In this document: positions 17,599-50,129 of the stretch, piece after piece
Layout of the letters: each line of letters opens with the position of its first letter
How positions within the stretch are numbered: position 1 is the stretch's first letter
Assembly (NCBI GenBank): GCA_013298875.1
Contig: JAAFJH010000001.1
Location: forward strand, 7,030-71,029
Length of the DNA stretch: 64,000 nucleotides
Origin: Synechococcales cyanobacterium bin2.concoct.b11b12b14.033
Lineage (GTDB): Bacteria > Cyanobacteriota > Vampirovibrionia > Caenarcaniphilales > Caenarcanaceae
Direction: 5' to 3'
Position numbers and translations under genes: made by a program
Notes under the pieces: model-generated
Databases searched by the model: none
The model's input: only the letters and a program-made list of their open reading frames with translations
What the model was told of the DNA's origin: nothing

Positions 17599-17671
17599 AG
17601 CCGACAATGGGATTCGAACCCACGGCCTACGCTTTACGAGAGCGTCGCTCTACCAACTGAGCTATGTCGGC
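17599..17671 (-). tRNA. tRNA-Thr (anticodon CGU)
   Basis: Reverse complement GCCGACA-UA-GCUCAGUUGGUAGAGC-G-ACGCU-CUCGUAA-AGCGU-AGGCC-GUGGG-UUCGAAU-CCCAU-UGUCGGC-U folds as a cloverleaf with a 7/4/5/5 stem pattern, T-loop GTTCGAATC and anticodon CGU; CCA is not encoded. Confidence 0.9.
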
Positions 17672-33490: not shown

Positions 33491-33510
33491 AATTTATTTT
33501 TTTAGCTGAA

Positions 33511-33685
33511 CTAGTTTGATAATTTAAAATATAAAGCTTTTATTAAAAATAAGCGGGAAATAACTGACTTTTTAAGTAATTTTTAACTTTTTTAATTAAC
33601 TCAAACAAATCCTTAGACGCCAAGAATAATGATTGTTTTTAATTTTATTTTCCAAAACTTAAGATTATTACTTTTAGATTTTTGT
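33511..33685. repeat. Copy A of a roughly 170-bp duplicated upstream/5'-leader segment
   Basis: ctagtttgataatttaaaatataaagcttttattaaaaataagcgggaaataactgac...ccttagacgccaagaataatgattg... is about 95% identical to 34168-34335; lies between divergent fba and the 33763 gene. Confidence 0.8.
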
Positions 33686-33762
33686 TCATGTGAAGGTTTG
33701 TTTTAAAGTTCTCAATGATAGTCTTTGGTATATTTATTAAGTAAACTTTTAAAGGCAAAACA

Positions 33763-34107
33763 ATGACCGATTCAATCAGAGCAATTTCCCCTCAAAGCTG
33801 GAGAAACCTCGGACGAGAACTTACCCCTAGGGAAGAGGTTAGACAACGGGCAAAAAAATATTTACCTAATGCACAAGAACCTATTCTACCATTATCAGCC
33901 CCAAGAACTAAGCCAACTACTCCACAAAATGAAGGAAGTACTAATACAAATTCAGCACATTCAGAAAGTAATGACTTTCCCGATCACGTAAGTAGATTTG
34001 ATTTAAATGATAAACAGTTTTCTCTGCTGCCACCGGATAAGCAAGCTGAATTAAGTAAGAATGGCGGAACGATACCAGGCTGGTTAGCAAAAAGACTCTT
34101 AGGATAG
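33763..34107 (+). CDS. Hypothetical hydrophilic protein, paralog of the next gene's N-terminus (candidate secreted effector)
   Basis: 114 aa, no signal peptide, Pro/Ser/Thr/Asn-rich. Its first codons (atgaccgattcaatcagagcaatttcc) are recognisably homologous to the start of the 34424 gene, and it shares the duplicated upstream segment. Confidence 0.45.
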   Translation: MTDSIRAISPQSWRNLGRELTPREEVRQRAKKYLPNAQEPILPLSAPRTKPTTPQNEGSTNTNSAHSESNDFPDHVSRFDLNDKQFSLLPPDKQAELSKNGGTIPGWLAKRLLG

Positions 34108-34167
34108 TACCGCATAATTAATAGTTTCAAACCATAAAGTTAAAAGTGATTTCAATCCATTTTTTAA

Positions 34168-34335
34168 CTAGTTTGATGATTTAAAATATAAAGCTTTTAT
34201 TAAAAATAAGCGGTAAATAACTAACTTTTTAAGTAATTTTTAACTTTTTTAATTAACTCAAATAAATCCTTAGACGCCAAGAATAATGATTATTTTTAAT
34301 TTTATTTTTCATAGTTTGAGATTATTATTTTTTGT
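34168..34335. repeat. Copy B of the roughly 170-bp duplicated upstream/5'-leader segment
   Basis: Near-identical to 33511-33685 (a handful of substitutions); directly upstream of the 34424 gene. Confidence 0.8.
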
Positions 34336-34423
34336 CAATTGGTCAAACGAAGGTTTATTTTTAAATTCTTTAGTGTTAGGCTGTAAATTATATTTACTAA
34401 ACAAACTTTACAGGTAAAGAATA

Positions 34424-35629
34424 ATGACAAATCCAATTGGAGCAACTTCCACAGGACAAAAATATCAAACTCCAAGAAATAGTTTAAAACAAACTTGGGA
34501 GGAGCCTTCAGCTAGAACTATGGCTGAATTTGAGGCACAACAAGCCCAATCTCTAAGGGTTCCTAATCTTGAGGTAATAAAGGAATTGTTTACGAATGCT
34601 AAAACTGAAGCCCCCCAAAGCAAACTTTCAACTCCCGCCAGTAAATTATTAGAACCAGCTAATCAAAATCTTCAATTAACTGCTGAATTGCCAACTGATA
34701 AATTACTTCAAGAGTATGATACTTCACTCCAAACATTGGCTGCTGAGCATTATGCCAACTTACATGCTTTAACCCAATCAAATGAAGCAGATATTGAGGA
34801 ATTAAAAAGTAATATTGAAACAAAATTTAAAGAATTCTCAGCCAAAGAACTTCGGTCTCATCACGAAGCCGTAAAAAGAGCAGAAGAAGCCTTACTTTTA
34901 GCTAAAGCAGATTTGGCAAATGAAGAGAAAAAATTACTCGATATTAAGGGAGATTCACTAGAAGCTAAGAAAGCCAATTTATTAAAAGCTCACCAGAAAG
35001 CTCTGCAAACTGCTGGAAAAGAACATGAAAAAGCTGTGTCAAATGCAACTGGAGCCTATTATTTGAAAAAGAATAAATCGGAAGAGTTGGCAGAAAAAGT
35101 TAATAGTGTGTCAACCGCTTTTCTTTCTCAATTACCCCAAGAAGGGAAATCCACAACGCCTAATTCATTTCAAGATTCTATTACTGGATTAGGAGTATTG
35201 AAAAAGAATCTTCTTTCTTCAGCTAAAGCTAAACCTCAGTCAAATAATTCAGGTACGCCAACTACTTCGGAGCCATTAAGTAATAATACTACTTCCTCCA
35301 ACAACAATGAGTGGTTACCTAAAGCAGGTCAATCAATGCTTACCCCAAGGACAAAACCGTCAGTTTCACTTCCTAATAATGAAACAAGTGCTTCAAAACC
35401 AACGATTGAATCAATGACGACTCAGATTAAAAATAGTAATTTTATTAGTGCGGAAGATAAACAACAAAGACTTAGCTTAATTAAGGATTTTGATGAAATG
35501 CTTTCGGAAGGTAAAAAAGGAGAAGCCTTTAACCACTTAAACAAAATGATAACTAATAGAGAAGGAGTGCTAGCTAGTAAACTTAAAGACCTCTGGAATG
35601 CAACTCACCCAAATAATCCAATCGGTTAA
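34424..35629 (+). CDS. Hypothetical coiled-coil / low-complexity protein (candidate secreted effector)
   Basis: 401 aa; no signal peptide, disordered N-terminus, central coiled coil, S/T/N-rich tract (SNNSGTPTTSEPLSNNTTSSNNNEW). Confidence 0.5.
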   Translation: MTNPIGATSTGQKYQTPRNSLKQTWEEPSARTMAEFEAQQAQSLRVPNLEVIKELFTNAKTEAPQSKLSTPASKLLEPANQNLQLTAELPTDKLLQEYDTSLQTLAAEHYANLHALTQSNEADIEELKSNIETKFKEFSAKELRSHHEAVKRAEEALLLAKADLANEEKKLLDIKGDSLEAKKANLLKAHQKALQTAGKEHEKAVSNATGAYYLKKNKSEELAEKVNSVSTAFLSQLPQEGKSTTPNSFQDSITGLGVLKKNLLSSAKAKPQSNNSGTPTTSEPLSNNTTSSNNNEWLPKAGQSMLTPRTKPSVSLPNNETSASKPTIESMTTQIKNSNFISAEDKQQRLSLIKDFDEMLSEGKKGEAFNHLNKMITNREGVLASKLKDLWNATHPNNPIG

Positions 35630-37070: not shown

Positions 37071-37670
37071 TTATGAATTATTTTGAATGAAATTTTTTAA
37101 TAATTGATGACCGTATTCTGTCATAATCGACTCTGGGTGAAATTGTACGCCATAAATTGGATATGTTAAATGCTGAATGGCCATAATTAAATTATCATCC
37201 TGGCTATGAGCGGTTATATTCAATTCTTCTTTTGGAAAAGTTATGTCGTTAATTACTAATGAATGATAGCGAGTTGCCTTGAATGAAGAAGGAATTTCTT
37301 TGAAGATAATTGAGTTTTGATGTTCTATAACTGATACTTTACCGTGTTTGGGTAAGGGTGCTTTGATAATTTCTCCGCCAAAAAACTGCCCAATGCACTG
37401 ATGGCCTAAGCAAACTCCCAAAATTGGTTTTTGATTATAAAAGTTTTTTAAAATATCTAAGCTGATTCCTGCCTCATTAGGAGTGCCAGGCCCTGGCGAA
37501 ATTACTATATGGCTAAAATTTAAACTCTCAATTTGACTTATGGTAATCTTGTCATTTCTTTCAACCAGAGTTTCATAGCCTAATTCCCATAAATATTGTG
37601 CCAAATTATAAGTAAAGCTATCGTAATTATCAACTAGAAGAATTTTAGTGGAATTATTCATGACATTCAA
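37071..37670 (-). CDS. pabA: Class I glutamine amidotransferase, anthranilate/aminodeoxychorismate synthase component II
   Basis: 199 aa; ILLVDNYDSFTYNL N-terminus, catalytic GVCLGHQ and HPES motifs. Confidence 0.85.
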   Translation of the reverse strand: MNVMNNSTKILLVDNYDSFTYNLAQYLWELGYETLVERNDKITISQIESLNFSHIVISPGPGTPNEAGISLDILKNFYNQKPILGVCLGHQCIGQFFGGEIIKAPLPKHGKVSVIEHQNSIIFKEIPSSFKATRYHSLVINDITFPKEELNITAHSQDDNLIMAIQHLTYPIYGVQFHPESIMTEYGHQLLKNFIQNNS

Positions 37671-37828
37671 GCAAATTATTAATTTATTTTACTATTTTAA
37701 ACTTTTAGCGAATTAGAATAATTAATTTTAAATTTATTTACATTTTCAGATTCTGAGATTAGCTTTGAGACCAGATTAATTGAAAATCTTTTGCAAAGCG
37801 AGAAGCTTAAACATACCATTAATCTACT

Positions 37829-37945
37829 TTATAAAAGTCCTAATTTTTTAAGTCTAAAACTCATGGCTTGACTAGAAACCTGAAAAGTATTAGCTAAGTC
37901 ATTAACTTCTTCGCATTGATTCCAGTACAAAGAAACTAATTGCAT
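37829..37945 (-). pseudogene. 38-codon remnant resembling the C-terminus of an ImmA/IrrE-family (DUF955) metallopeptidase
   Basis: Minus-strand ORF MQLVSLYWNQCEEVNDLANTFQVSSQAMSFRLKKLGLL* has the ...VSxQAMxxRLxxLGL* ending characteristic of ImmA/IrrE proteins; no upstream HExxH part remains. Confidence 0.3.
37832..37851. repeat. Left copy of the 20-bp direct repeat flanking hicBA (taaaagtcctaattttttaa)
   Basis: Identical 20-mer recurs at 38452-38471. It encodes ...KKLGLL* of the ImmA-like remnant on the minus strand. Confidence 0.8.
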
Positions 37946-37964
37946 TGAATAATCTAAGGAATTA

Positions 37965-38174
37965 TTAAATTAAGTCTTTTTCTGTGAGGTTAGCTTGTTT
38001 CATTATTGATTTTAATATCCCAATTCCTAAATCTTGATTTGAATGAACTGGCACAGAAATTGCAAAGTTATTTCCTTTTTTTCTATATACATGATGACTT
38101 CCATTAACACGAATAAAGATCCAGCCATGTTTTTCTAAAACTTTACAAAATGCTTTACCAGAATAACTTTTCAC
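37965..38174 (-). CDS. hicA: HicA-family mRNA interferase toxin
   Basis: 69 aa; YcfA/HicA fold with GWxxxRxxGSHHxY motif (KHGWIFIRVNGSHHVYRK). Confidence 0.85.
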   Translation of the reverse strand: MKSYSGKAFCKVLEKHGWIFIRVNGSHHVYRKKGNNFAISVPVHSNQDLGIGILKSIMKQANLTEKDLI

Positions 38175-38377
38175 AAATTAAACTCCATCAATTGAGAACG
38201 CTTATCTAATTCACCTTCTGGAATATTCATTGCTTCAATCCAGCCTTCAGCAGACTCTTTTAAGTTTTCAATTATCTCTTCAATAGTTTTGCCTTGAGTA
38301 AAACAACCAGGTAAAGCTGGTACTTCCGCCCAGTAACCGCCTTCTTCTGCTTCGTGAATAATTGCTTGAATTTTCAT
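38171..38377 (-). CDS. hicB: HicB-family antitoxin (short UPF0150 form)
   Basis: 68 aa; MKIQAIIHEAEEGGYWAEVPALPGCFTQGKTIEEIIENLKE matches the HicB RNase-H-like N-domain; 4-nt overlap with hicA downstream. Confidence 0.7.
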   Translation of the reverse strand: MKIQAIIHEAEEGGYWAEVPALPGCFTQGKTIEEIIENLKESAEGWIEAMNIPEGELDKRSQLMEFNL

Positions 38378-38451
38378 CTTGTTTTTTTATTACTAATTAC
38401 ATCTTACCTAAAAAAATATTAACTTAAAATAATACAAATCTAGCCTGTTTT

Positions 38452-38471
38452 TAAAAGTCCTAATTTTTTAA
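38452..38471. repeat. Right copy of the 20-bp direct repeat flanking hicBA
   Basis: Exact copy of 37832-37851, 620 bp away; sits in the 5' leader of the OLD-like gene. Confidence 0.8.
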
Positions 38472-38509
38472 AGTTTATTTTACAATCAAGCAAATGAAAA
38501 AGTTTTGAG

Positions 38510-39964
38510 ATGTTTAAGAACATGGCAATCTTAAAAGAAGTATGTATTGAAAAATTTCGAGATATAAAAGATCTAATTTTACCAATTGGTGAGCGGCTTA
38601 CAATAATAGCTGGGCGAAATGGAACTTCCAAAACAACAATTTTAGGAATGCTAGCACATGGGTTTACTTTTGATGCAGAACATAAAACATTATTTGGATC
38701 TGCTTTTCATACAGACTTAAAAGAGGTACTCCAGCTAAGTGATGAAGAGATTCAAAGTACAAAAATTAATATAAATCTCCACTCTAAAGAAAGACCATTT
38801 ATTCAGCTAATACCTACTTATCATAAAGAGGAGGATAGACACAGAATTGTTGCAAGAGGAAAAGCGGAAGACTCAGAGGGAAAGCTTAAGGCAATAAGTT
38901 CAAAACATTCTTGTCCAGTAATTTACTTAACTCTTGGCAGATTAAGTCCACTATTTGAGCTTACATCTGCCGATCCAGATCATTCTTTTCAAGAGGAAAG
39001 CTTAAGTGAGGATGAGCTAAAAATAGGCCAACACTTACATAAAGCTTTAATTAACATTGATGAAGAGCTTATCAGTTTTGAAAGACTGACATCAAAGATA
39101 AAAACAAAAAGTGGAAAGAATACCAGAAAAATAGCTGCGGGAACGAAGAAGTATGGGAAATATGGCATGTCCGCAGGACAGGATACTATTGTTCAAATTG
39201 CTTTTGCCATCCTTTCCTTCAAGCGATTAAAAGAAAAAACTCAAGATTATAAAGGAGGTCTTTTATTAATTGATGAAGTTGAAGCGACCTTGCATCCATC
39301 TGCCCAGAGAAGTCTTATTCAAATACTAAATCAATATTCCAGAGAGTATAGCATGCAAATTGTTTTAACTACCCATTCATGGTCATTTCTTCAAGACAGT
39401 CGTAAGGAAAAATCGCAGATCAACTATATTACAAAAGATGAAGGGGAATTTAAATTACTTACAGATATGCAGGGGATAGAAGAAGATTTCTTTTCGAGAG
39501 CATTTGATCAAAGAAAATCAAAAATACAAATACCTGGTTTTTGTGAAGATAAATCTGCAAAGAAATTCTTGGAACTCATTCTTTCAAAAGAAAATAAGGA
39601 GCAAATTCATCTTGGAGTATTGGGTACACGTGATGTTATTGTGCAGCTGGCAAAGAATTTCTTTAAGTGTAAATTGAATCCTTGCGTATGGTTCTTGGAT
39701 GGAGATCAATTGAGATCTAAAAACTTAGAAAAGGGAGTACTCGTTTTACCTTCTAATAGGCAAGTTTGCCCAGAATTGGAAATTTACGAGTTTCTAGTTG
39801 GCTTAGAATCTTCAGATTCTTTGTGGCAATTAATTAGCTATACAAAATCTCAAATGTTTCACAAGTCAAATAGTGAGCCATTAAAGTCTAGGCCAGAAAA
39901 CAAAGCGAAAAGATTATGGGAAGATATCTCAAATACAAGTCGTAAAGTGAACATAAGACTTTAA
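38510..39964 (+). CDS. OLD-family ATP-dependent nuclease (ABC/AAA_21-type ATPase fused to a C-terminal Toprim domain)
   Basis: 484 aa; Walker A GRNGTSKTT, ABC-signature-like MSAGQ, Walker B LLLIDEVEATLHP, H-loop VLTTHS; then Toprim-like glutamate (GFCEDKSAKKFLE) and DxD (WFLDGDQ). Confidence 0.75.
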   Translation: MFKNMAILKEVCIEKFRDIKDLILPIGERLTIIAGRNGTSKTTILGMLAHGFTFDAEHKTLFGSAFHTDLKEVLQLSDEEIQSTKININLHSKERPFIQLIPTYHKEEDRHRIVARGKAEDSEGKLKAISSKHSCPVIYLTLGRLSPLFELTSADPDHSFQEESLSEDELKIGQHLHKALINIDEELISFERLTSKIKTKSGKNTRKIAAGTKKYGKYGMSAGQDTIVQIAFAILSFKRLKEKTQDYKGGLLLIDEVEATLHPSAQRSLIQILNQYSREYSMQIVLTTHSWSFLQDSRKEKSQINYITKDEGEFKLLTDMQGIEEDFFSRAFDQRKSKIQIPGFCEDKSAKKFLELILSKENKEQIHLGVLGTRDVIVQLAKNFFKCKLNPCVWFLDGDQLRSKNLEKGVLVLPSNRQVCPELEIYEFLVGLESSDSLWQLISYTKSQMFHKSNSEPLKSRPENKAKRLWEDISNTSRKVNIRL

Positions 39965-40082: not shown

Positions 40083-40949
40083 ATGAGCTTTGATTCACCT
40101 CTTCGATATCCAGGCGGCAAAGGTCGTCTAACAAACTACATTAAATCAATTTTTGAACTGAATGATTTAGTAGGTGGTGAATATGTTGAACCTTATGCTG
40201 GTGGTGCAGGAATAGCCTGTTCACTTTTACTTTCTGGTCATGTATCTAAAATTCACCTAAATGATTTAAACAAGTCTATTTATGCTTTTTGGTACTCAAT
40301 AATGAATAGTACTGATGAATTTTGTAAATTGATTTTTGACACTGAACTAACTATTGAGGAATGGTATAAACAACGAGAAATTCAAAAAGATTATGATTCA
40401 TGGCTTTCACTTGGTTTCTCTACATTTTTCTTAAATCGTACTAATCGATCTGGAATTATTACTGCTGGTGTAATTGGAGGATTGAAGCAAGATGGAGAAT
40501 GGAAATTAGATGCTCGATTCAATAAAAGCAATTTAATTTCAAGAATTGAAAAACTTGCGCAATATAAAAAACAAATTAAGTTATCTAATAAAGACGCTGT
40601 TATTTTTGTGAAGGAAACTATCAAAAAACTTCCTGAGAAATCTTTGATCTATTTTGATCCACCTTATTATATGAAAGGGCAAAAACTGTATGCAAATTAC
40701 TATGAGCATCATGATCATCTTCAAATCTCTTCTTTAATTCAAGAAAAAATAACGCAAAATTGGATTGTTTCTTACGATTATGTTCCTGAAATTGCAAAAA
40801 TGTATAAAGTTCAGTCAAAAGTTTATGATTTAAGTTACAGTGCTGGTAATCGTTATAAAGGTAAAGAAATAATGTTTTTTTCTCCCAATTTAAAGAAACC
40901 CACAACTATAAGCAAATCAAGCCTTTTGGAGAGAAAGAAGTTTAGCTAA
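40083..40949 (+). CDS. dam: DNA adenine methyltransferase, D12 (Dam) class
   Basis: 288 aa; N-terminal YPGGKGRL (Dam AdoMet/FxGxG-region equivalent), catalytic DPPY (IYFDPPYY); 118 bp downstream of the OLD-like gene, same strand. Confidence 0.85.
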   Translation: MSFDSPLRYPGGKGRLTNYIKSIFELNDLVGGEYVEPYAGGAGIACSLLLSGHVSKIHLNDLNKSIYAFWYSIMNSTDEFCKLIFDTELTIEEWYKQREIQKDYDSWLSLGFSTFFLNRTNRSGIITAGVIGGLKQDGEWKLDARFNKSNLISRIEKLAQYKKQIKLSNKDAVIFVKETIKKLPEKSLIYFDPPYYMKGQKLYANYYEHHDHLQISSLIQEKITQNWIVSYDYVPEIAKMYKVQSKVYDLSYSAGNRYKGKEIMFFSPNLKKPTTISKSSLLERKKFS

Positions 40950-43790
40950 ATATTTACCAGTAAAAGATTGTTTATTTTTTATAATTTGTATTGGGGTACC
41001 TTCGGCGATAATTTCCCCGCCAGCTTGTCCACCTTCAGGCCCCAAATCAATGATCCAATCAGCTTGTTTAATAACATCCAAATTATGCTCAATAATTAAA
41101 ACAGTATTTCCCGCCTCTGCTAATTTGTGTAGTACTAACATTAATTTTTCAATATCATACCAATGCAAGCCGGTAGTCGGCTCATCCAAAATATAAAGCG
41201 TTTTGCCAGTATGTCTGCGTGATAATTCGGTGGCCAATTTTATGCGCTGAGCTTCGCCACCAGAAAAGGTAGTTGCAGATTGACCTAATTGTATATAACC
41301 CAAGCCTACTTCTTCTAAAGTTTTAAGCTTATTATAAACCGCTGGAATTGACTCAAAGACATTGTTAGCTTGGCTTACCGTCAGATTGAGTATGTCGGAG
41401 ATCGAATAGCCTTTATATTTTACTTCTAAAGTTTCTTGATTATATCTTTTGCCATCACAGACTGCACATTTCACAAAAACCGAAGGCAAAAAATTCATTT
41501 CAATTTCTAAATGTCCTTGCCCATTACAAGCCTCACAACGCCCACCTTTGACATTAAACGAAAAACGCCCTGGGCCATAACCTCTTAGCTTAGCGTCTGA
41601 CATAGTAGCAAAAAGCTCTCTGATTGGTGTGAAAGCCCCCGTATAAGTAGCCGGATTAGAATGGGGAGTTCTTCCAATTGGGCTTTGGTCAATTTCAATT
41701 ACTTTGTCTATATTTTCCAGTCCTTCAATTAAATCAACACCCACTGGTTTTTGGCGATTTTTGAGTAAGCAACTTTGCAAATAAGGAAAAAGCAAATTCA
41801 TAATTAAACTTGACTTGCCCGAACCAGAAACTCCTGTAACCAAAACCATTTTTCCAAGCGGAATTTCAGTACTTACATTTTTTAAATTGTTTAAATGAGC
41901 ATTTGTAATTTTAATTGATTGATTATTTCCTTCTCGAGGTTTAATTGGGCCTTTTAATTGCCATTCTCCTGATAAATATTTGCCCGTTAAAGATTCTTCG
42001 GTTGAACAAATACTTTCAAAACTGCCGGTTGCTACTATTTCTCCGCCTTCTCTTCCAGCTTTTGGCCCAACATCAATAATCCAATCACAAGCTCTAATGG
42101 TATCTTCATCGTGCTCAACCACTAAAACTGTATTTCCCAAGTTTTTTAATTTTTTTAAAGTTTCGATTAAGCGGTCATTATCTCTTTGGTGCAGCCCAAT
42201 GCTAGGTTCATCCAAAACATATAAAACTCCCGATAAACCAGACCCAATTTGTGTCGCTAATCTAATTCTTTGGGCTTCTCCGCCCGATAAAGTTGATGCA
42301 CCACGAGACAAGTTTAAATAATTTAAGCCCACATCTTTCAAAAACTGCAAACGATTTTTAATTTCCAGAATAATTCTTTCCGCTACTTTTAAGTCAAATT
42401 CACTAACTAAAGAAGGTATTTTCTCAAAAAACGCTAAAGTATCATCAATGCCTAAACTTGTTATTTCATTAATTGATAGATCGCCAAATTTAACTGCCGA
42501 AGATTCTTTACGCAGACGAGAACCATTACATTCCGGGCAAGTCTGAAATGACATATAACCTTCGAGGTCGCTTTTGGCTTTGTCATTACTGGAGCTGCAA
42601 GCTTTTTGATATTTTTTGTTTAAATTATTAATTACTCCTTCAAAGGGCATATTAAAAGTTAAAAGATCGTCCCCATCAAAAGAATCATAACTTAATTCAA
42701 TTGGCTCATCGGAACCGTATAAAACAGTTTTTCTAATTTCTCGGCTCAAGGATTTCCAGGGCGTGGCGGGTTTAATTTTAAAAGCTTTGCAAACCGAATT
42801 TAATAATTGTACATAATAATTAGTGCTTGACTTTGCCCATGGCACAATACAATTCAGCAAAGCCATATCTGTATTTGGAATTAATTTAGAGAGGTCAAAT
42901 TCTTGGGTATGTCCTAATCCATGGCACTCTGGGCAAGCACCTTCTGGGCTATTAAAAGAAAATAATTTGGGTGAAAGAGGCGGCAAACTTCCATGTCCTT
43001 GCGGGCAAGCTAAATGCTCCGAAAAGTGTAGCTCAGAAGTAATTTCTTGATCGTCATTCACAATTGCAAATTTAGCAAAGCCATTTCCTTTACGCAGAGC
43101 CAAACCCAAACTATCTGCTAGGCGAGAACGGTTTTCCAATTTGACACTTAAACGGTCAATGACAATTTCGATATTATGTTTTTTATTTTTAGTTAATTTA
43201 ATTTCCTCATCCAATGAATAAATTATTTCATTTACCTTAACTCGCAAAAATCCTTCTTTTTTTAATTTGCCAAATAAAGTTGTATGGTCACCTTTTTTCA
43301 GTTCAGCTACTGGAGCTAAGATTAATCCTTTTTGATCTTCGGCCTTGCTAAAAACTTCATCAATAATTTGATCAATACTTTGTTTGCTTACAGCAGTGCC
43401 ACAAATTGGGCAAAATTGTTTTCCGACACGTCCAAATAAAAGCCTTAAGTGATCGTAAATTTCGGTTACTGTTCCAACGGTTGAACGTACATTATGGCTA
43501 GCTGACTTTTGGTTAATAGCAATGGCGGGGCTAAGTCCTTCAATTGAATCAATGTCTGGTTTATCAACTTGGCCTAAAAACTGCCGAGCATAAGAAGATA
43601 AAGATTCGACATAACGGCGCTGGCCTTCTGCAAAAATGGTATCAAAAGCTAAAGAACTTTTGCCAGAGCCAGAAACACCTGTTATAACCACCAATTGGTT
43701 TTTAGGAATGCAAACATCAATATTTTTTAAATTATGTTCTCTTGCTCCAGTAACTTTAATCCATTCTTGGTTTTTCCCATCAGCAGTCAT
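40917..43790 (-). CDS. uvrA: Excinuclease ABC subunit A
   Basis: 957 aa; two ABC ATPase modules (GVSGSGKSSL twice), zinc-finger cysteines, UvrB-binding and insertion domains in canonical order; last 11 codons overlap dam's last 11 codons on the opposite strand. Confidence 0.97.
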   Translation of the reverse strand: MTADGKNQEWIKVTGAREHNLKNIDVCIPKNQLVVITGVSGSGKSSLAFDTIFAEGQRRYVESLSSYARQFLGQVDKPDIDSIEGLSPAIAINQKSASHNVRSTVGTVTEIYDHLRLLFGRVGKQFCPICGTAVSKQSIDQIIDEVFSKAEDQKGLILAPVAELKKGDHTTLFGKLKKEGFLRVKVNEIIYSLDEEIKLTKNKKHNIEIVIDRLSVKLENRSRLADSLGLALRKGNGFAKFAIVNDDQEITSELHFSEHLACPQGHGSLPPLSPKLFSFNSPEGACPECHGLGHTQEFDLSKLIPNTDMALLNCIVPWAKSSTNYYVQLLNSVCKAFKIKPATPWKSLSREIRKTVLYGSDEPIELSYDSFDGDDLLTFNMPFEGVINNLNKKYQKACSSSNDKAKSDLEGYMSFQTCPECNGSRLRKESSAVKFGDLSINEITSLGIDDTLAFFEKIPSLVSEFDLKVAERIILEIKNRLQFLKDVGLNYLNLSRGASTLSGGEAQRIRLATQIGSGLSGVLYVLDEPSIGLHQRDNDRLIETLKKLKNLGNTVLVVEHDEDTIRACDWIIDVGPKAGREGGEIVATGSFESICSTEESLTGKYLSGEWQLKGPIKPREGNNQSIKITNAHLNNLKNVSTEIPLGKMVLVTGVSGSGKSSLIMNLLFPYLQSCLLKNRQKPVGVDLIEGLENIDKVIEIDQSPIGRTPHSNPATYTGAFTPIRELFATMSDAKLRGYGPGRFSFNVKGGRCEACNGQGHLEIEMNFLPSVFVKCAVCDGKRYNQETLEVKYKGYSISDILNLTVSQANNVFESIPAVYNKLKTLEEVGLGYIQLGQSATTFSGGEAQRIKLATELSRRHTGKTLYILDEPTTGLHWYDIEKLMLVLHKLAEAGNTVLIIEHNLDVIKQADWIIDLGPEGGQAGGEIIAEGTPIQIIKNKQSFTGKYLAKLLSLQKA

Positions 43791-43957: not shown

Positions 43958-45652
43958 ATGGCTAACGAAAGAATTACAGAAAATATTGTGAGGAATCTTT
44001 TAAGGGATAAAGGGTATTATGATAATGATAAAATCATAATTGAAGAACAATCATCTGCCAACCCCCAAATAAACAAATTACTGAAATTAGCCTCTAAGAG
44101 TGGTACGGGAAAAGGTTATCCTGAATTTATTATATCCTTTAAAAACAAACCTAATGACCTTATAGTCATTGAATGTAAGGGGAGCATTACATATCACGAG
44201 AGTAAGGATAGAGAGCAATATAAGAATTATGCAGTTGACGGGGTCTTGCTGTATGCCTCTTATTTGAAAGATTCGTTTAACGTAACAGCTATTGCGGTAA
44301 GTGGTGAAAATGAGAGAGAGAAAAAAATATCATCTTTTATTTGGCTGAGAGAGCATTACACCTATAAAAACATTCAGGATAAAATACTATTAGCTCCTGA
44401 TGAAATTTCCAATATAATAGTAGAGCAATCCAAACCTATTTCAGAAGATGAGTTAATAAAAAAGGCTATTGAATATAACTCCTTTTTACACAAATACTCT
44501 ATACCCGAAGTTGAAAGATGTACCCTGATAAGCTCAATATTGATAGCGTTACAAGACAAACCTTTTCTAAGCAGCTACAAAGAATATACAAACAACAGGG
44601 ATTTAATAGAGAACTTAATTGAGGCTTGCAAGCGTGTTTTAAAAAGTAAGGAATTAGAAGATAGAAAGACAGAAGTAATCATTGATGAATACTCAAAGTT
44701 TAAAAACAACAATGGTTCATTTAACTCTCAGACATTCTATAATAAAAAGACTAAAAGCGACGAAGCAAACACTATACTTAGAGATTTTATAATTCTCATT
44801 AATGAAAATATACTTCCTTATATCAATAATAGTGAATTTGATGTATTAGGTAAGTTCTATACACAGTTTATAAGATATGCAGGTAGCGATAAAAAAACGG
44901 GGTTAGTCTTAACACCTACTCATATAACAGATTTATTTTGTGAAATAGCCGATTTAGGTATAGATGATATAGTTTTTGATGAGTGCTGCGGTACTGCAGG
45001 TTTTTTAGTCTCAGCTATGAATTATATGCTAAAGAAAGCAGGGAACAACTCTGAAAAGAAGAAAATAATTAAGTCATCTCAATTATTGGGTATTGAAGAT
45101 CGTTCTGATATGTTTTCTCATGCTTGCTCTAATATGATGATGAGGGGGGACGGCAAAAGCCACATTCTTTACGGCGACTGTTTCAAGGAAGAAAATAAAA
45201 GTATTATTAGAGCAAATAAACCGACAAAAGCCTTTTTAAATCCTCCATACCAAGATGGGAATGCAGCCGAACAATTAGAATTTATCGAAAATGCTTTAAG
45301 TTGCCTAGTAAAAGATGGGCTCTGTATTGCCATTTGTCAAATGTCAACAACTGTTTCGAGTAATAAGGATGTAATAGAAGTTCGGGAACGGATATTGGCC
45401 AACCATACATTAGAAGCCACATTTTCAATGCCTATCGATTTGTTTCACCCCGTCGGAGTTAATACGAGCATTTTGATCTTCAAGGCACATCATGTGCATC
45501 CCCAAAGGAAAAAAACATTTTTTGGGTATTTTAAAAACGATGGTTTTGTGAAAACCAAAAATCATGGAAGGGTAGATAAGAACAATCAGTGGGACGAAAT
45601 TAAAAAAACTTGGCTTAATGCTTACATTAATAAAGAAAGCATTGTAGGATAA
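43958..45652 (+). CDS. N6-adenine DNA methyltransferase (gamma class, HsdM/Eco57I-like) with N-terminal restriction-endonuclease-like domain; no adjacent HsdS/HsdR
   Basis: 564 aa; N-terminal PEFIISF...LIVIECKG resembles a (P)D/E...(D/E)xK nuclease or HsdR-N-like core. The methyltransferase has motif I VFDECCGTAGFL, then motif IV NPPY (FLNPPYQDG); it has no target-recognition domain and no specificity subunit nearby. Confidence 0.7.
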   Translation: MANERITENIVRNLLRDKGYYDNDKIIIEEQSSANPQINKLLKLASKSGTGKGYPEFIISFKNKPNDLIVIECKGSITYHESKDREQYKNYAVDGVLLYASYLKDSFNVTAIAVSGENEREKKISSFIWLREHYTYKNIQDKILLAPDEISNIIVEQSKPISEDELIKKAIEYNSFLHKYSIPEVERCTLISSILIALQDKPFLSSYKEYTNNRDLIENLIEACKRVLKSKELEDRKTEVIIDEYSKFKNNNGSFNSQTFYNKKTKSDEANTILRDFIILINENILPYINNSEFDVLGKFYTQFIRYAGSDKKTGLVLTPTHITDLFCEIADLGIDDIVFDECCGTAGFLVSAMNYMLKKAGNNSEKKKIIKSSQLLGIEDRSDMFSHACSNMMMRGDGKSHILYGDCFKEENKSIIRANKPTKAFLNPPYQDGNAAEQLEFIENALSCLVKDGLCIAICQMSTTVSSNKDVIEVRERILANHTLEATFSMPIDLFHPVGVNTSILIFKAHHVHPQRKKTFFGYFKNDGFVKTKNHGRVDKNNQWDEIKKTWLNAYINKESIVG

Positions 45653-49112: not shown

Positions 49113-50129
49113 TTGTTGTTAGACTTGCTTATGATTATTCGCCCAGGATTAAGTGTACTCAGACAAGCTTTTTCTCTTACAGATGTTAGTCAAGCTAAAG
49201 CTCCAGTTGAAGTTGAAGATCAATGGAGGAGTGGACTTCGCTTACCAGATGGAATTAATTCTCAGGATTCAGGAATAATACCTACTTCTAATAATAAGCA
49301 GATAACGATTGAAGAGTCTGGCCTATCAGCTTGGGCTTTTAATATCTTGAAAAAAACAGGTTTACTAACTGTAGAAAAAATACTACAATCCATTCAAGAA
49401 AATAATGGAAATCTTCCAAAGGGTACGGTAGAAAATTCAAGCAAAACAGGGCGTGAAATTATAAATTATGCACTAACTAAAAATGCTGAGCAGGAAGGTG
49501 AAACGTCAATTGAAGAGTCTGGCTTGTCAACTAGAGCTTTGAAAATCTTAACTACAGAAGGTTTACTAACTGTAGAAAAAATACTACAATCCATTCAAGA
49601 AAATAATGGAAATCTTCCAGAGGGTACAGTAAAAAACTCAAGCGATACAGGGCGTGAAATTATACATTATGCACTAACTAAAAATGCTGAGCAGGAAGGT
49701 GAAACGTCAATTACGGATACGGAACTTGGTTTAGAGATACAGTATTTTAGTGTTTTATTGAGGAGCGGTTTATTCACCGCCGAAGATGTACTCGAAGCAA
49801 TTCAAGAAAATAATGGAGCTCTTCCTTATGGTACATTAGAAAACTCAAGCCAAACAGGACGTAAAATTATAAATTTTGCCTTAAATATAAATGCTAAGAA
49901 AAAAGATAAAACGTCAATTACGGAACTTAACTTAGACATAAGGTATATTAATGCTTTGTTAAAAAAAGGTTTATTTACGGTTGAAGATGCATTCAAAGCA
50001 CTTTCCCAAAAACAAACAATTTGTAGAGATCAAGGAGTAATTAAAGTAGCTGTTTTAGGGTTTTGGGCTAGACAAAGTGAACAAGCTAAACTTTTGCCTA
50101 CTGGATTAAAAGCAAAAGAGGCGGACTAG
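49113..50129 (+). CDS. Protein composed of four tandem RNA-polymerase-alpha-CTD-like helix-hairpin-helix repeats
   Basis: 338 aa; four units of 67-69 aa (IEESGLSxxALKILxxxGLLTVEKILQ...GRExIxYAL...) match the alpha-CTD pattern E-L-x-L-S-V-R-x-x-N-x-L-K-x-x-G-I-x-T-V-x-D-L. The underlying 201-bp DNA repeats R1 and R2 are nearly identical. Confidence 0.55.
   Translation: MLLDLLMIIRPGLSVLRQAFSLTDVSQAKAPVEVEDQWRSGLRLPDGINSQDSGIIPTSNNKQITIEESGLSAWAFNILKKTGLLTVEKILQSIQENNGNLPKGTVENSSKTGREIINYALTKNAEQEGETSIEESGLSTRALKILTTEGLLTVEKILQSIQENNGNLPEGTVKNSSDTGREIIHYALTKNAEQEGETSITDTELGLEIQYFSVLLRSGLFTAEDVLEAIQENNGALPYGTLENSSQTGRKIINFALNINAKKKDKTSITELNLDIRYINALLKKGLFTVEDAFKALSQKQTICRDQGVIKVAVLGFWARQSEQAKLLPTGLKAKEAD
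49308..50129 (+). repeat. Tandem array of four 201-207-bp coding repeats (starts 49308, 49509, 49710, 49917)
   Basis: R1 vs R2 about 90% nucleotide identity over 201 bp; R3 and R4 are progressively diverged. Confidence 0.8.

Follow-up and report, generated by a model that had tools for sequence, protein, structure and literature searches.

The locus described here lies in a stretch of 64,000 nucleotides, called the window below, of contig JAAFJH010000001.1 (positions 7,030 to 71,029 of the forward strand; assembly GCA_013298875.1, Synechococcales cyanobacterium bin2.concoct.b11b12b14.033, placed by GTDB in the Caenarcaniphilales). A predicted toxin–antitoxin pair, hicB-hicA (hicBA), was bracketed in this window by two copies of an exact 20-bp direct repeat, TAAAAGTCCTAATTTTTTAA, at positions 37832–37851 and 38452–38471 (20/20 identical). 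The first-pass annotation, which had been made from the letters alone, recorded this repeat and offered two origins for it: a site-specific insertion of the cassette with duplication of an attachment-like (att-like) site, or recombination between two ImmA-like gene ends that left hicBA between them. Judged by sequence comparison, the 20-mer is the shared tail of two decayed ImmA-type genes and not an attachment site for hicBA. The bracketed region was made up of the following features, where XRE-HTH denotes an XRE-type helix-turn-helix.

37829–37939, minus strand: immA-L, a predicted 111-nt 3' pseudogene remnant (36 codons and a stop) of an XRE-HTH plus Peptidase_M78 gene
37832–37851, minus strand: left 20-mer, the last 6 codons of immA-L (KKLGLL, with part of the preceding L codon); its stop TAA is at 37829–37831
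37940–37964, minus strand: scar, 25 nt linking the hicA stop to the point where immA-L homology sets in; no homologue, left by a deletion or a join
37965–38174, minus strand: hicA, predicted toxin gene, 69 aa (PF07927 HicA_toxin, E=3e-20)
38171–38377, minus strand: hicB, predicted antitoxin gene, 68 aa (PF15919, E=4e-10; PF21748, E=1.5e-9)
38378–38451, minus strand: spacer F, 74 nt, the native downstream sequence of an intact immA in a metagenome contig (L118); here the upstream region of hicBA, running to the hicB ATG
38452–38471, minus strand: right 20-mer (immA-R), the predicted last 20 nt of a second immA copy, with the stop mutated from TAA to AAA
38472–38509, no strand: 38-nt junction from the immA-R truncation point to the start codon of an ATPase gene; known from the window assembly only

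The hicBA pair and the 20-bp repeat

The hicB and hicA genes were adjacent and co-oriented, and overlapped by 4 nt. By the domains of both predicted products, the dsRBD-like HicA toxin and the HicB antitoxin with its RNase H-like fold, the pair is a HicAB type II toxin–antitoxin module. The HicB product consisted of the HicB/UPF0150 fold only, without a DNA-binding domain; therefore, the autoregulation of hicBA may have depended on another factor. The promoter of the pair presumably lies in spacer F.

The repeat was confirmed at both positions by an exact-match search, and no further copy was found in the 64-kb window when up to 3 mismatches were allowed, so that the sequence did not recur at unrelated intergenic sites within this genome window. 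With one mismatch the repeat widened to 24 nt (37828–37851 and 38448–38471). Two true duplications of ~200 nt left aside, the 20-mer was the longest exact short direct repeat in the window. The G+C content of the window was 32%, and in first-order Markov simulations of it (n=300) a 20-mer direct repeat arose within 1 kb in 1/300 and anywhere in 12/300. A 19-nt exact repeat was also observed elsewhere in the window, apparently by chance. The 20-mer had 0 matches in IMG/VR, and its 29 matches in metagenomes all lay in unrelated open reading frames (ORFs) or their flanks and say nothing about this element.

The outer hexamers of the 20-mer, TTAAAA...TTTTAA, form a weak inverted repeat that can be read directly from the sequence. 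The repeat with its surroundings folded no better than shuffled sequence (z = +0.8 to +2.0), and no promoter-like or terminator-like site overlapped either copy. In Rfam no credible match was obtained, the only one being a sub-threshold small RNA (E=0.81) beside the right copy. A role of the repeat as terminator, hairpin or small RNA was rejected on the folding, the site scan and the Rfam search.

Two immA-type gene ends

The left copy closed a 38-codon ORF on the minus strand (37829–37945) that ended in ...FRLKKLGLL*, in a frame that stays open over 46 codons, beginning just within the hicA stop. A phmmer search with this remnant against 1.84 billion representative proteins gave one strong match, P0121 (303 aa; E=3.4e-13), at 89% identity over residues 267–303 of 303, i.e. 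the extreme C-terminus. In the opposite direction, tblastn with residues 268–303 of P0121 found immA-L at 92% identity, and beyond this single match no other piece of P0121, hence no intact copy, was found in the 64-kb window. The P0121 protein carries an N-terminal XRE-type HTH (HTH_3, E=5.6e-10), a Peptidase_M78 domain and the motif HELGH. Its PF06114 match (E=3.3e-12) spans residues 246–298 and so covers the stretch left in the remnant. Among PADLOC models, capP matched P0121 (E=8.5e-21), as did capH more weakly (E=7.8e-5). Another intact copy, P0130, belonged to the 90% cluster of P0121 and also had the HELGH motif. These domains bear out the first-pass reading of the left copy as the C-terminus of an ImmA/IrrE-like gene, and by them the intact gene is a 303-aa fused HTH-peptidase regulator of the CapH-CapP-fusion type (ImmA/IrrE/CapP-like).

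When the remnant was scanned against Pfam by itself, as 38 aa or as 44 aa, a weak HTH_20 match was all that appeared (E=0.05–0.065), and a word-index protein search with the 44-aa remnant gave no match. Scans of IMG/VR with P0121 and HicB returned only weak partial matches, and tblastn of P0121 against phage records gave identities of ≤40%. The remnant lacked ~800 nt of 5' coding sequence. The HEXXH zinc-binding motif and an intact frame were absent from the window, where only the 36 C-terminal codons of immA-L were left. On these features immA-L is a pseudogene stub and not a functional ImmA/IrrE member.

The locus was further compared with several contigs. One of them, L001 (run SRR9948926), reached from the hicB ATG to trpG. 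Two others, L082 and L133 (run SRR9948933), were 100% identical to the window, L082 wherever it was compared. More distant comparators were a relative with a TrpG 89% identical (L083), relatives with a uvrA 87% identical in DNA (L122–L131), and two metagenome contigs with intact immA homologues, L118 (JGI 3300033517) and L132 (JGI 3300081838). None of these comparators was a relative with the same synteny around the locus.

At the DNA level, positions 37939–37827 of the window corresponded to positions 1529–1641 of L118 (93.8% over 113 nt, blastn), and immA-L was 88.5% identical to the immA of L132. The right copy led to the same place. Positions 38471–38370 corresponded to L118 1617–1717 (86.5%, blastn), a 104-nt tract that holds the last 20 nt of immA and its downstream flank. 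Because the flank homology to L118 continues past the 20-mer, the right copy is, by this alignment, the tail of a second immA gene still joined to its native 3' flank. The homology to immA broke off at 38471/38472; from there, 38 nt remain to the start codon of the ATPase gene, which runs in the opposite direction. As the first-pass annotation had described, the right copy encodes a ...KKLGLL tail in a spurious ORF antisense to the beginning of that gene.

The order of these parts speaks against an insertion of hicBA. In the intact gene of L118, the last 20 nt and the next 75–80 nt are contiguous. Had hicBA been inserted into immA, the first repeat should be preceded by the body of the gene and the second followed by the native flank. 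What was observed was tail and native flank, hicBA, then gene body and tail: the native flank followed the right (first) copy, and the body (in the 111-nt remnant, the 91 nt that lead up to the 20-mer) stood before the left (second) one. This reversed order does not support an insertion of hicBA into an immA gene. Further, in the ORFs scanned with Pfam (90 aa or longer, from 26 to 50 kb), no integrase, recombinase or transposase domain was detected; these ORFs were housekeeping genes, DNA methyltransferases and three without a Pfam match. The site-specific insertion with an att-like duplication was therefore not borne out, as the flank order was reversed and neither a recombinase in the scanned ORFs nor a hairpin was found.

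Two kinds of mobile cassette were also rejected. An integron gene cassette would carry an attC site, and neither attC-like folding beyond that of shuffled sequence nor an intI integrase in the scanned ORFs was found. A tycheposon-like tRNA island was dismissed as well, the only tRNA of the window being 20 kb away. This sole tRNA was a tRNA-Thr(CGT) at 17599–17671, ~20 kb from the repeat; no island signature was noticed around it, though no search aimed at one was made.

In L118, immA and the spacer occurred without hicBA and in another genomic context. The segment 1640–1948 of this contig kept the hicBA-type upstream spacer and the first 8 nt of hicB (ATGAAAAT), and was followed by unrelated sequence up to pgi. 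The hicB start was a breakpoint common to the divergence of L118 and to the contig end of L001. The contigs L132 and L118 were 92% identical over 1062 nt, which included the immA promoter and coding sequence, and their homology ended a few nt past the stop. Therefore, the immA 3' end is a recurrent synteny boundary.

The island between uvrA and trpG and its variation

The hicBA pair and both stubs belonged to an island of 3.1 kb between the uvrA stop and the trpG promoter. The remaining features of this island and its borders were as follows.

37071–37661, minus strand: trpG/pabA-type glutamine amidotransferase gene (PF00117, E=5e-59), a housekeeping gene on the distal side of the island
37788–37828, minus strand: flank 3' of immA-L, resembling the last ~50 nt of uvrA (best at 37788–37809, 18/22); may be a displaced, attR-like fragment
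38510–39964, plus strand: ATPase gene, AAA_15/AAA_21 by Pfam (OLD/Gabija/PtuA-like), 484 aa; PADLOC ATPase-Toprim_I-B, E=1.6e-22; island cargo
40083–40949, plus strand: D12-class N6-adenine DNA methyltransferase (MTase) gene (PF02086, E=4e-17; PADLOC PD-Lambda-5_B, E=6e-121); island cargo
40917–43790, minus strand: uvrA, whose stop codon is the proximal island boundary

Read along the minus strand, the order was uvrA, the MTase and ATPase genes (on the opposite strand), immA-R, the spacer, hicB, hicA, the scar, immA-L, ~170 nt of intergenic sequence and trpG. The last 33 nt of the MTase gene overlapped the 3' end of uvrA on the opposite strand, so that the C-terminus of the MTase is the complement of the last 11 uvrA codons. 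In L133 the MTase was 100% identical. The ATPase and the Dam-like MTase likely form a defence pair of the restriction–modification (RM) and abortive infection (Abi) type, as far as their domains indicate. The gene labelled OLD in the first-pass annotation thus encodes an OLD-like AAA_15/AAA_21 ATPase, the best PADLOC match of which was ATPase-Toprim_I-B. It was also observed that L133 starts at window position 39953, near the ATPase stop, and that a 43-aa partial ORF called in it overlaps the MTase start; a frameshift or variant may exist there.

The relatives with an 87% identical uvrA had nothing else in common with the window on either side, and their homology ended at 40916. The relative with an 89% identical TrpG had a different gene upstream of trpG. 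Therefore, the 3.1 kb between uvrA and trpG are lineage-specific cargo. The exact proteins of the window were on record only from one NCBI contig and a few short Logan contigs, and exact look-ups of the ATPase with two alternative starts returned no record. The closest named relative of TrpG came from a Caenarcaniphilales metagenome-assembled genome (MAG; 69% identity). In a TrpG scan of genome contigs only homologues of ≤59% were among the matches listed, with no orthologous loci among them.

The contig L001, which came from another run, was 100% identical to the window in hicBA and trpG and differed from it at ~20 positions within 105 nt around immA-L and its flank. Because these changes cluster between otherwise identical strains, they point to allele replacement or gene conversion rather than to point mutation. 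The left junction of L001 reads ...GGACTTTTAAAAACAAGCTGA and was 92% identical to the right copy of the window over 39 nt, with the mutated stop and the following bases common to both. The left copy of the window keeps the TAA stop, as in L118 and L132.

Logan contigs from two runs ended at 37805, 38377, 39953 and 41053. The end at 37805 adjoins the first position at which the two alleles differ, so that the sample in question probably contains both of them. The other three ends were read as branch points in the same population; no alternative alleles were seen there. Two of the ends, 38377/38378 and 41053/41054, lay close to the inferred module boundaries. This pattern suggests several coexisting island haplotypes in the sampled population. 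The identity of immA-L to L118 (93.8%) exceeded that of trpG to its relative (85.5%; binomial p=0.005), a difference that suggests a horizontal exchange of the regulator gene.

A second line of comparison concerned the 3' end of uvrA. In L132, positions 1381–1461 hold the intact immA followed, directly after its stop, by a frameshifted 3' fragment of uvrA. This fragment was 84% identical over 62 nt to window uvrA (41035–40974) and 79.5% identical over 88 nt to the uvrA of L122–L131 (positions −118 to −31 from the stop); a 7-nt deletion broke its frame. Its local alignment score was 74, and the maximum for 3000 random window segments was 32. Read from its sequence, the arrangement resembles an attR junction such as an element would leave on integrating in the uvrA 3' end.

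The flank of immA-L in the window gave a weaker signal, with 18/22 identical positions to uvrA and an empirical p=0.012–0.14. In the L001 allele, 37/51 positions were identical, with p=0.0027 against window uvrA and 0/3000 against L122 uvrA, and the score of this flank only tied the best random match in 64 kb. No exact core longer than ~9 nt was common to the uvrA end and the distal fragment. When the last 118 nt of uvrA were inspected for foreign origin, the identity to L122 was flat along the gene and gave no signal. Spacer F was not significantly similar to uvrA (p=0.14–0.8), and its interpretation as a degraded uvrA fragment was rejected on these values and remains a model-driven guess.

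Some other features of the window were noted in passing. On the other side of uvrA (43958–45652), the window had an N6_Mtase gene where L122–L131 had T5orf172 together with type I RM genes HsdM/HsdS; in the lineage, variable cargo thus seems to occupy either side of uvrA. A 204-nt direct repeat (33509–33712 and 34166–34369) was 89% identical between its copies, which were spaced by 657 nt; each copy lay upstream of an ORF without a Pfam match (33763–34107 and 34424–35629), and the repeat may be a duplicated promoter, leader or module. Three tandem 201-nt (67-codon) repeats occupied 49308–49916, the second and third being 90% and 68% identical to the first. They lay inside an ORF (49113–50129) whose only Pfam match was an RNA_pol_A_CTD-like helix-hairpin-helix.

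Origin of the repeat and relation to known systems

We proposed that the two 20-mers are probably vestigial, in that two genes of one family, with fused XRE-HTH and M78 domains, decayed separately and left 3' ends that overlap in this stretch. The island would once have held two modules in tandem and in the same orientation, each headed or terminated by immA, with one immA upstream and one downstream of hicBA. One module would have carried hicBA, and the other would now be replaced by the PD-lambda-5-like pair of ATPase and MTase. Both regulators would have been destroyed by 5' deletions or replacements. The upstream immA would have been cut to 20 nt at the junction with the ATPase-MTase block, and the downstream one to 111 nt at the scar, 25 nt after hicA. 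The 20 nt would then be the stretch that both stubs still have in common before their flanks diverge. The hicBA pair probably persists as an addiction module, as the loss of a toxin–antitoxin pair would be counter-selected. The repeat would have no function of its own, and homologous recombination or gene conversion could use it as a short substrate. As the mosaic in L001 suggests, recombination may still take place between the stubs, or between a stub and an immA copy arriving from outside.

Several points weigh against this proposal. No genome shows two intact immA genes flanking hicBA, and immA sequence was present in only three comparator contigs (L001, L118 and L132). The junction at 38471/38472 has no independent contig across it, L001 ending at the hicB ATG. 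Apparently, the source is a MAG from a population with at least two haplotypes at the locus. Moreover, the present structure would also result if there had been one ancestral immA, the 3' 150 nt of which was duplicated locally.

In this last alternative, the ancestral order would be immA-spacer-hicBA, the last ~110 nt of the gene and ~40 nt of its flank would be copied downstream of hicA by template switching or unequal exchange, and the original would later be cut to 20 nt when the ATPase-MTase block arrived. The present structure fits it equally well, and the copies are identical over 20 nt, or 92% over 39 nt in the L001 allele, as would be expected of a fairly recent intralocus copy. However, the left flank of the window departs from spacer F after ~20–40 nt and resembles the uvrA 3' end instead, and the immA of L132 likewise precedes a uvrA fragment and not spacer F, which favours independent units of immA and flank. 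We regard this duplication as rather unlikely. A Campbell-style recombination of a circular or linear molecule (immA 3' fragment, 20-mer, spacer, hicBA) with a resident immA tail beside the ATPase gene, homologous or site-specific, is the only topologically possible form of the insertion proposed in the first-pass annotation. A circle integrating at a resident 20-mer is expected to leave the order of 20-mer, spacer F, hicBA, immA body and 20-mer that was observed. The L001 junction mosaic agrees with such an event, and so do the Logan contig ends at 37805 and 38377, which are at or near unit edges and suggest population variation. Nevertheless, a 620-bp circle presupposes a donor with the same repeat structure, no empty site was observed, and the scanned nearby ORFs included no recombinase gene. 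Neither inverted repeats nor attC-like folding were found, the 20-mer was absent from IMG/VR, and its metagenome matches were chance-like. A length of 20 nt is also shorter than normally required for efficient RecA recombination. Such an origin was considered improbable.

The two remaining explanations have still less in their favour. A functional cis element (operator, terminator or small RNA) needed at both ends of hicBA would agree with the position of the right copy, which lies 75 nt ahead of hicB within sequence that L118 also conserves, and with the weak inverted repeat of the outer hexamers. It was judged highly unlikely, since the folding was no better than that of shuffled sequence, no terminator-like or promoter-like site overlapped a copy and no credible Rfam match was obtained; moreover, each copy is accounted for as the 3' coding end of a protein gene. 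A chance match in AT-rich DNA, or an artefact of assembling a mixed population, is hardly credible at all. The low G+C content, the 19-nt exact repeat elsewhere and the right junction without an independent contig could be cited for it, but a 20-mer within 1 kb was so rare in the simulations, and each copy is part of a longer tract (113 nt and 104 nt) that aligns with the same site of L118. Besides, the left copy was independently confirmed by L001 from another run, and a chimeric join at 38471/38472 would need a common k-mer, which was not present.

The overall interpretation given in the first-pass annotation was therefore supported in part. Its ImmA-type tails and its two gene ends stood, as both copies are immA 3' ends with hicBA between them, and this option came close to the data; the attachment site did not stand. 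The apparent attachment site is explained away, since short exact repeats around a toxin–antitoxin pair can be overlapping stubs of two degraded regulators, a point of importance where mobile cassettes are recognised by their sequence only. On a small scale, the locus also exemplifies a defence and toxin–antitoxin islet that erodes while its addiction module persists.

It was tentatively considered that the uvrA 3' end of this Caenarcaniphilales-like (Melainabacteria) lineage may be an integration hot spot for small elements ending in a fused HTH-M78 regulator, with two tandem events in the window, a possibility that we hold to be doubtful. Each integration would displace the previous uvrA 3' end. 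The first event would have brought immA-R with spacer F, and the second hicBA to immA-L with the uvrA-like stub. The integrases and regulators would since have been stripped, leaving the defence and toxin–antitoxin cargo, and the 20-mer would be the conserved outermost sequence of the right end of the element. This lead is the only part of the analysis that could grow into something new. If confirmed, the L132 arrangement would give a protein-gene integration target and an element family, which were not found described for the poorly sampled non-photosynthetic relatives of cyanobacteria in a limited literature check.

Among known systems, the ImmA/ImmR pair of ICEBs1 and phage phi105 and the IrrE/DdrO pair of Deinococcus combine an M78/COG2856 peptidase with an XRE repressor. 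The P0121 protein resembles them by its XRE-type HTH and its Peptidase_M78 domain with HEXXH, and ImmA-type genes are typically found at the edges of mobile elements, which they control (Lau et al. preprint, 10.1101/2022.04.27.489752). The difference is that the HTH and the peptidase are fused in the single 303-aa P0121, that the window keeps only stubs of 111 nt and 20 nt, devoid of function, and that no integrase or excision genes were found among the scanned ORFs adjoining these stubs. CapH and CapP regulate CBASS and other defence operons, and fused forms of the two have been described beside CBASS as well as DISARM systems (Lau et al. 2022 preprint, 10.1101/2022.04.27.489752). The capP and capH matches of P0121 fit this group, as does the defence-type cargo of the window locus (PD-lambda-5_B-like MTase, OLD-like ATPase and hicBA). 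However, CapH/CapP are encoded upstream of, and in the opposite orientation to, the operon under their control, whereas the stubs run in the same direction as hicBA and away from the ATPase-MTase pair.

PD-lambda-5 is a compact, RM- and Abi-like two-gene defence system of prophages (Vassallo et al. 2022, PMC9519451). The MTase of the window matched PD-Lambda-5_B over its full length and is paired with an ATPase; that partner, in contrast, best matched ATPase-Toprim_I-B/AriA/PtuA, and PD-Lambda-5_A was absent among the 25 matches listed. The toxin–antitoxin pair has both Pfam domains, the gene overlap and the small products of HicAB modules, and differs in that the antitoxin gene comes first and that the minimal HicB lacks the usual ribbon-helix-helix or HTH extension.

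The streptococcal phage-like chromosomal islands SpnCI/SmiCI target uvrA at its 5' end or promoter (PMC4129442). They differ from the present locus, where the 3' end is concerned and where neither an integrase in the scanned ORFs nor an exact att core was found. There is a resemblance to islands that grow by tandem accretion at the 3' end of a tRNA or protein gene: the island of the window abuts the uvrA stop, and a displaced uvrA fragment follows immA in L132, with a weaker, only marginally significant uvrA-like flank after immA-L. In this comparison, the two successive immA-end junctions look like tandem attR scars. Taken with these systems, the feature is one of a known kind, namely eroded regulators and a toxin–antitoxin module in a defence islet.

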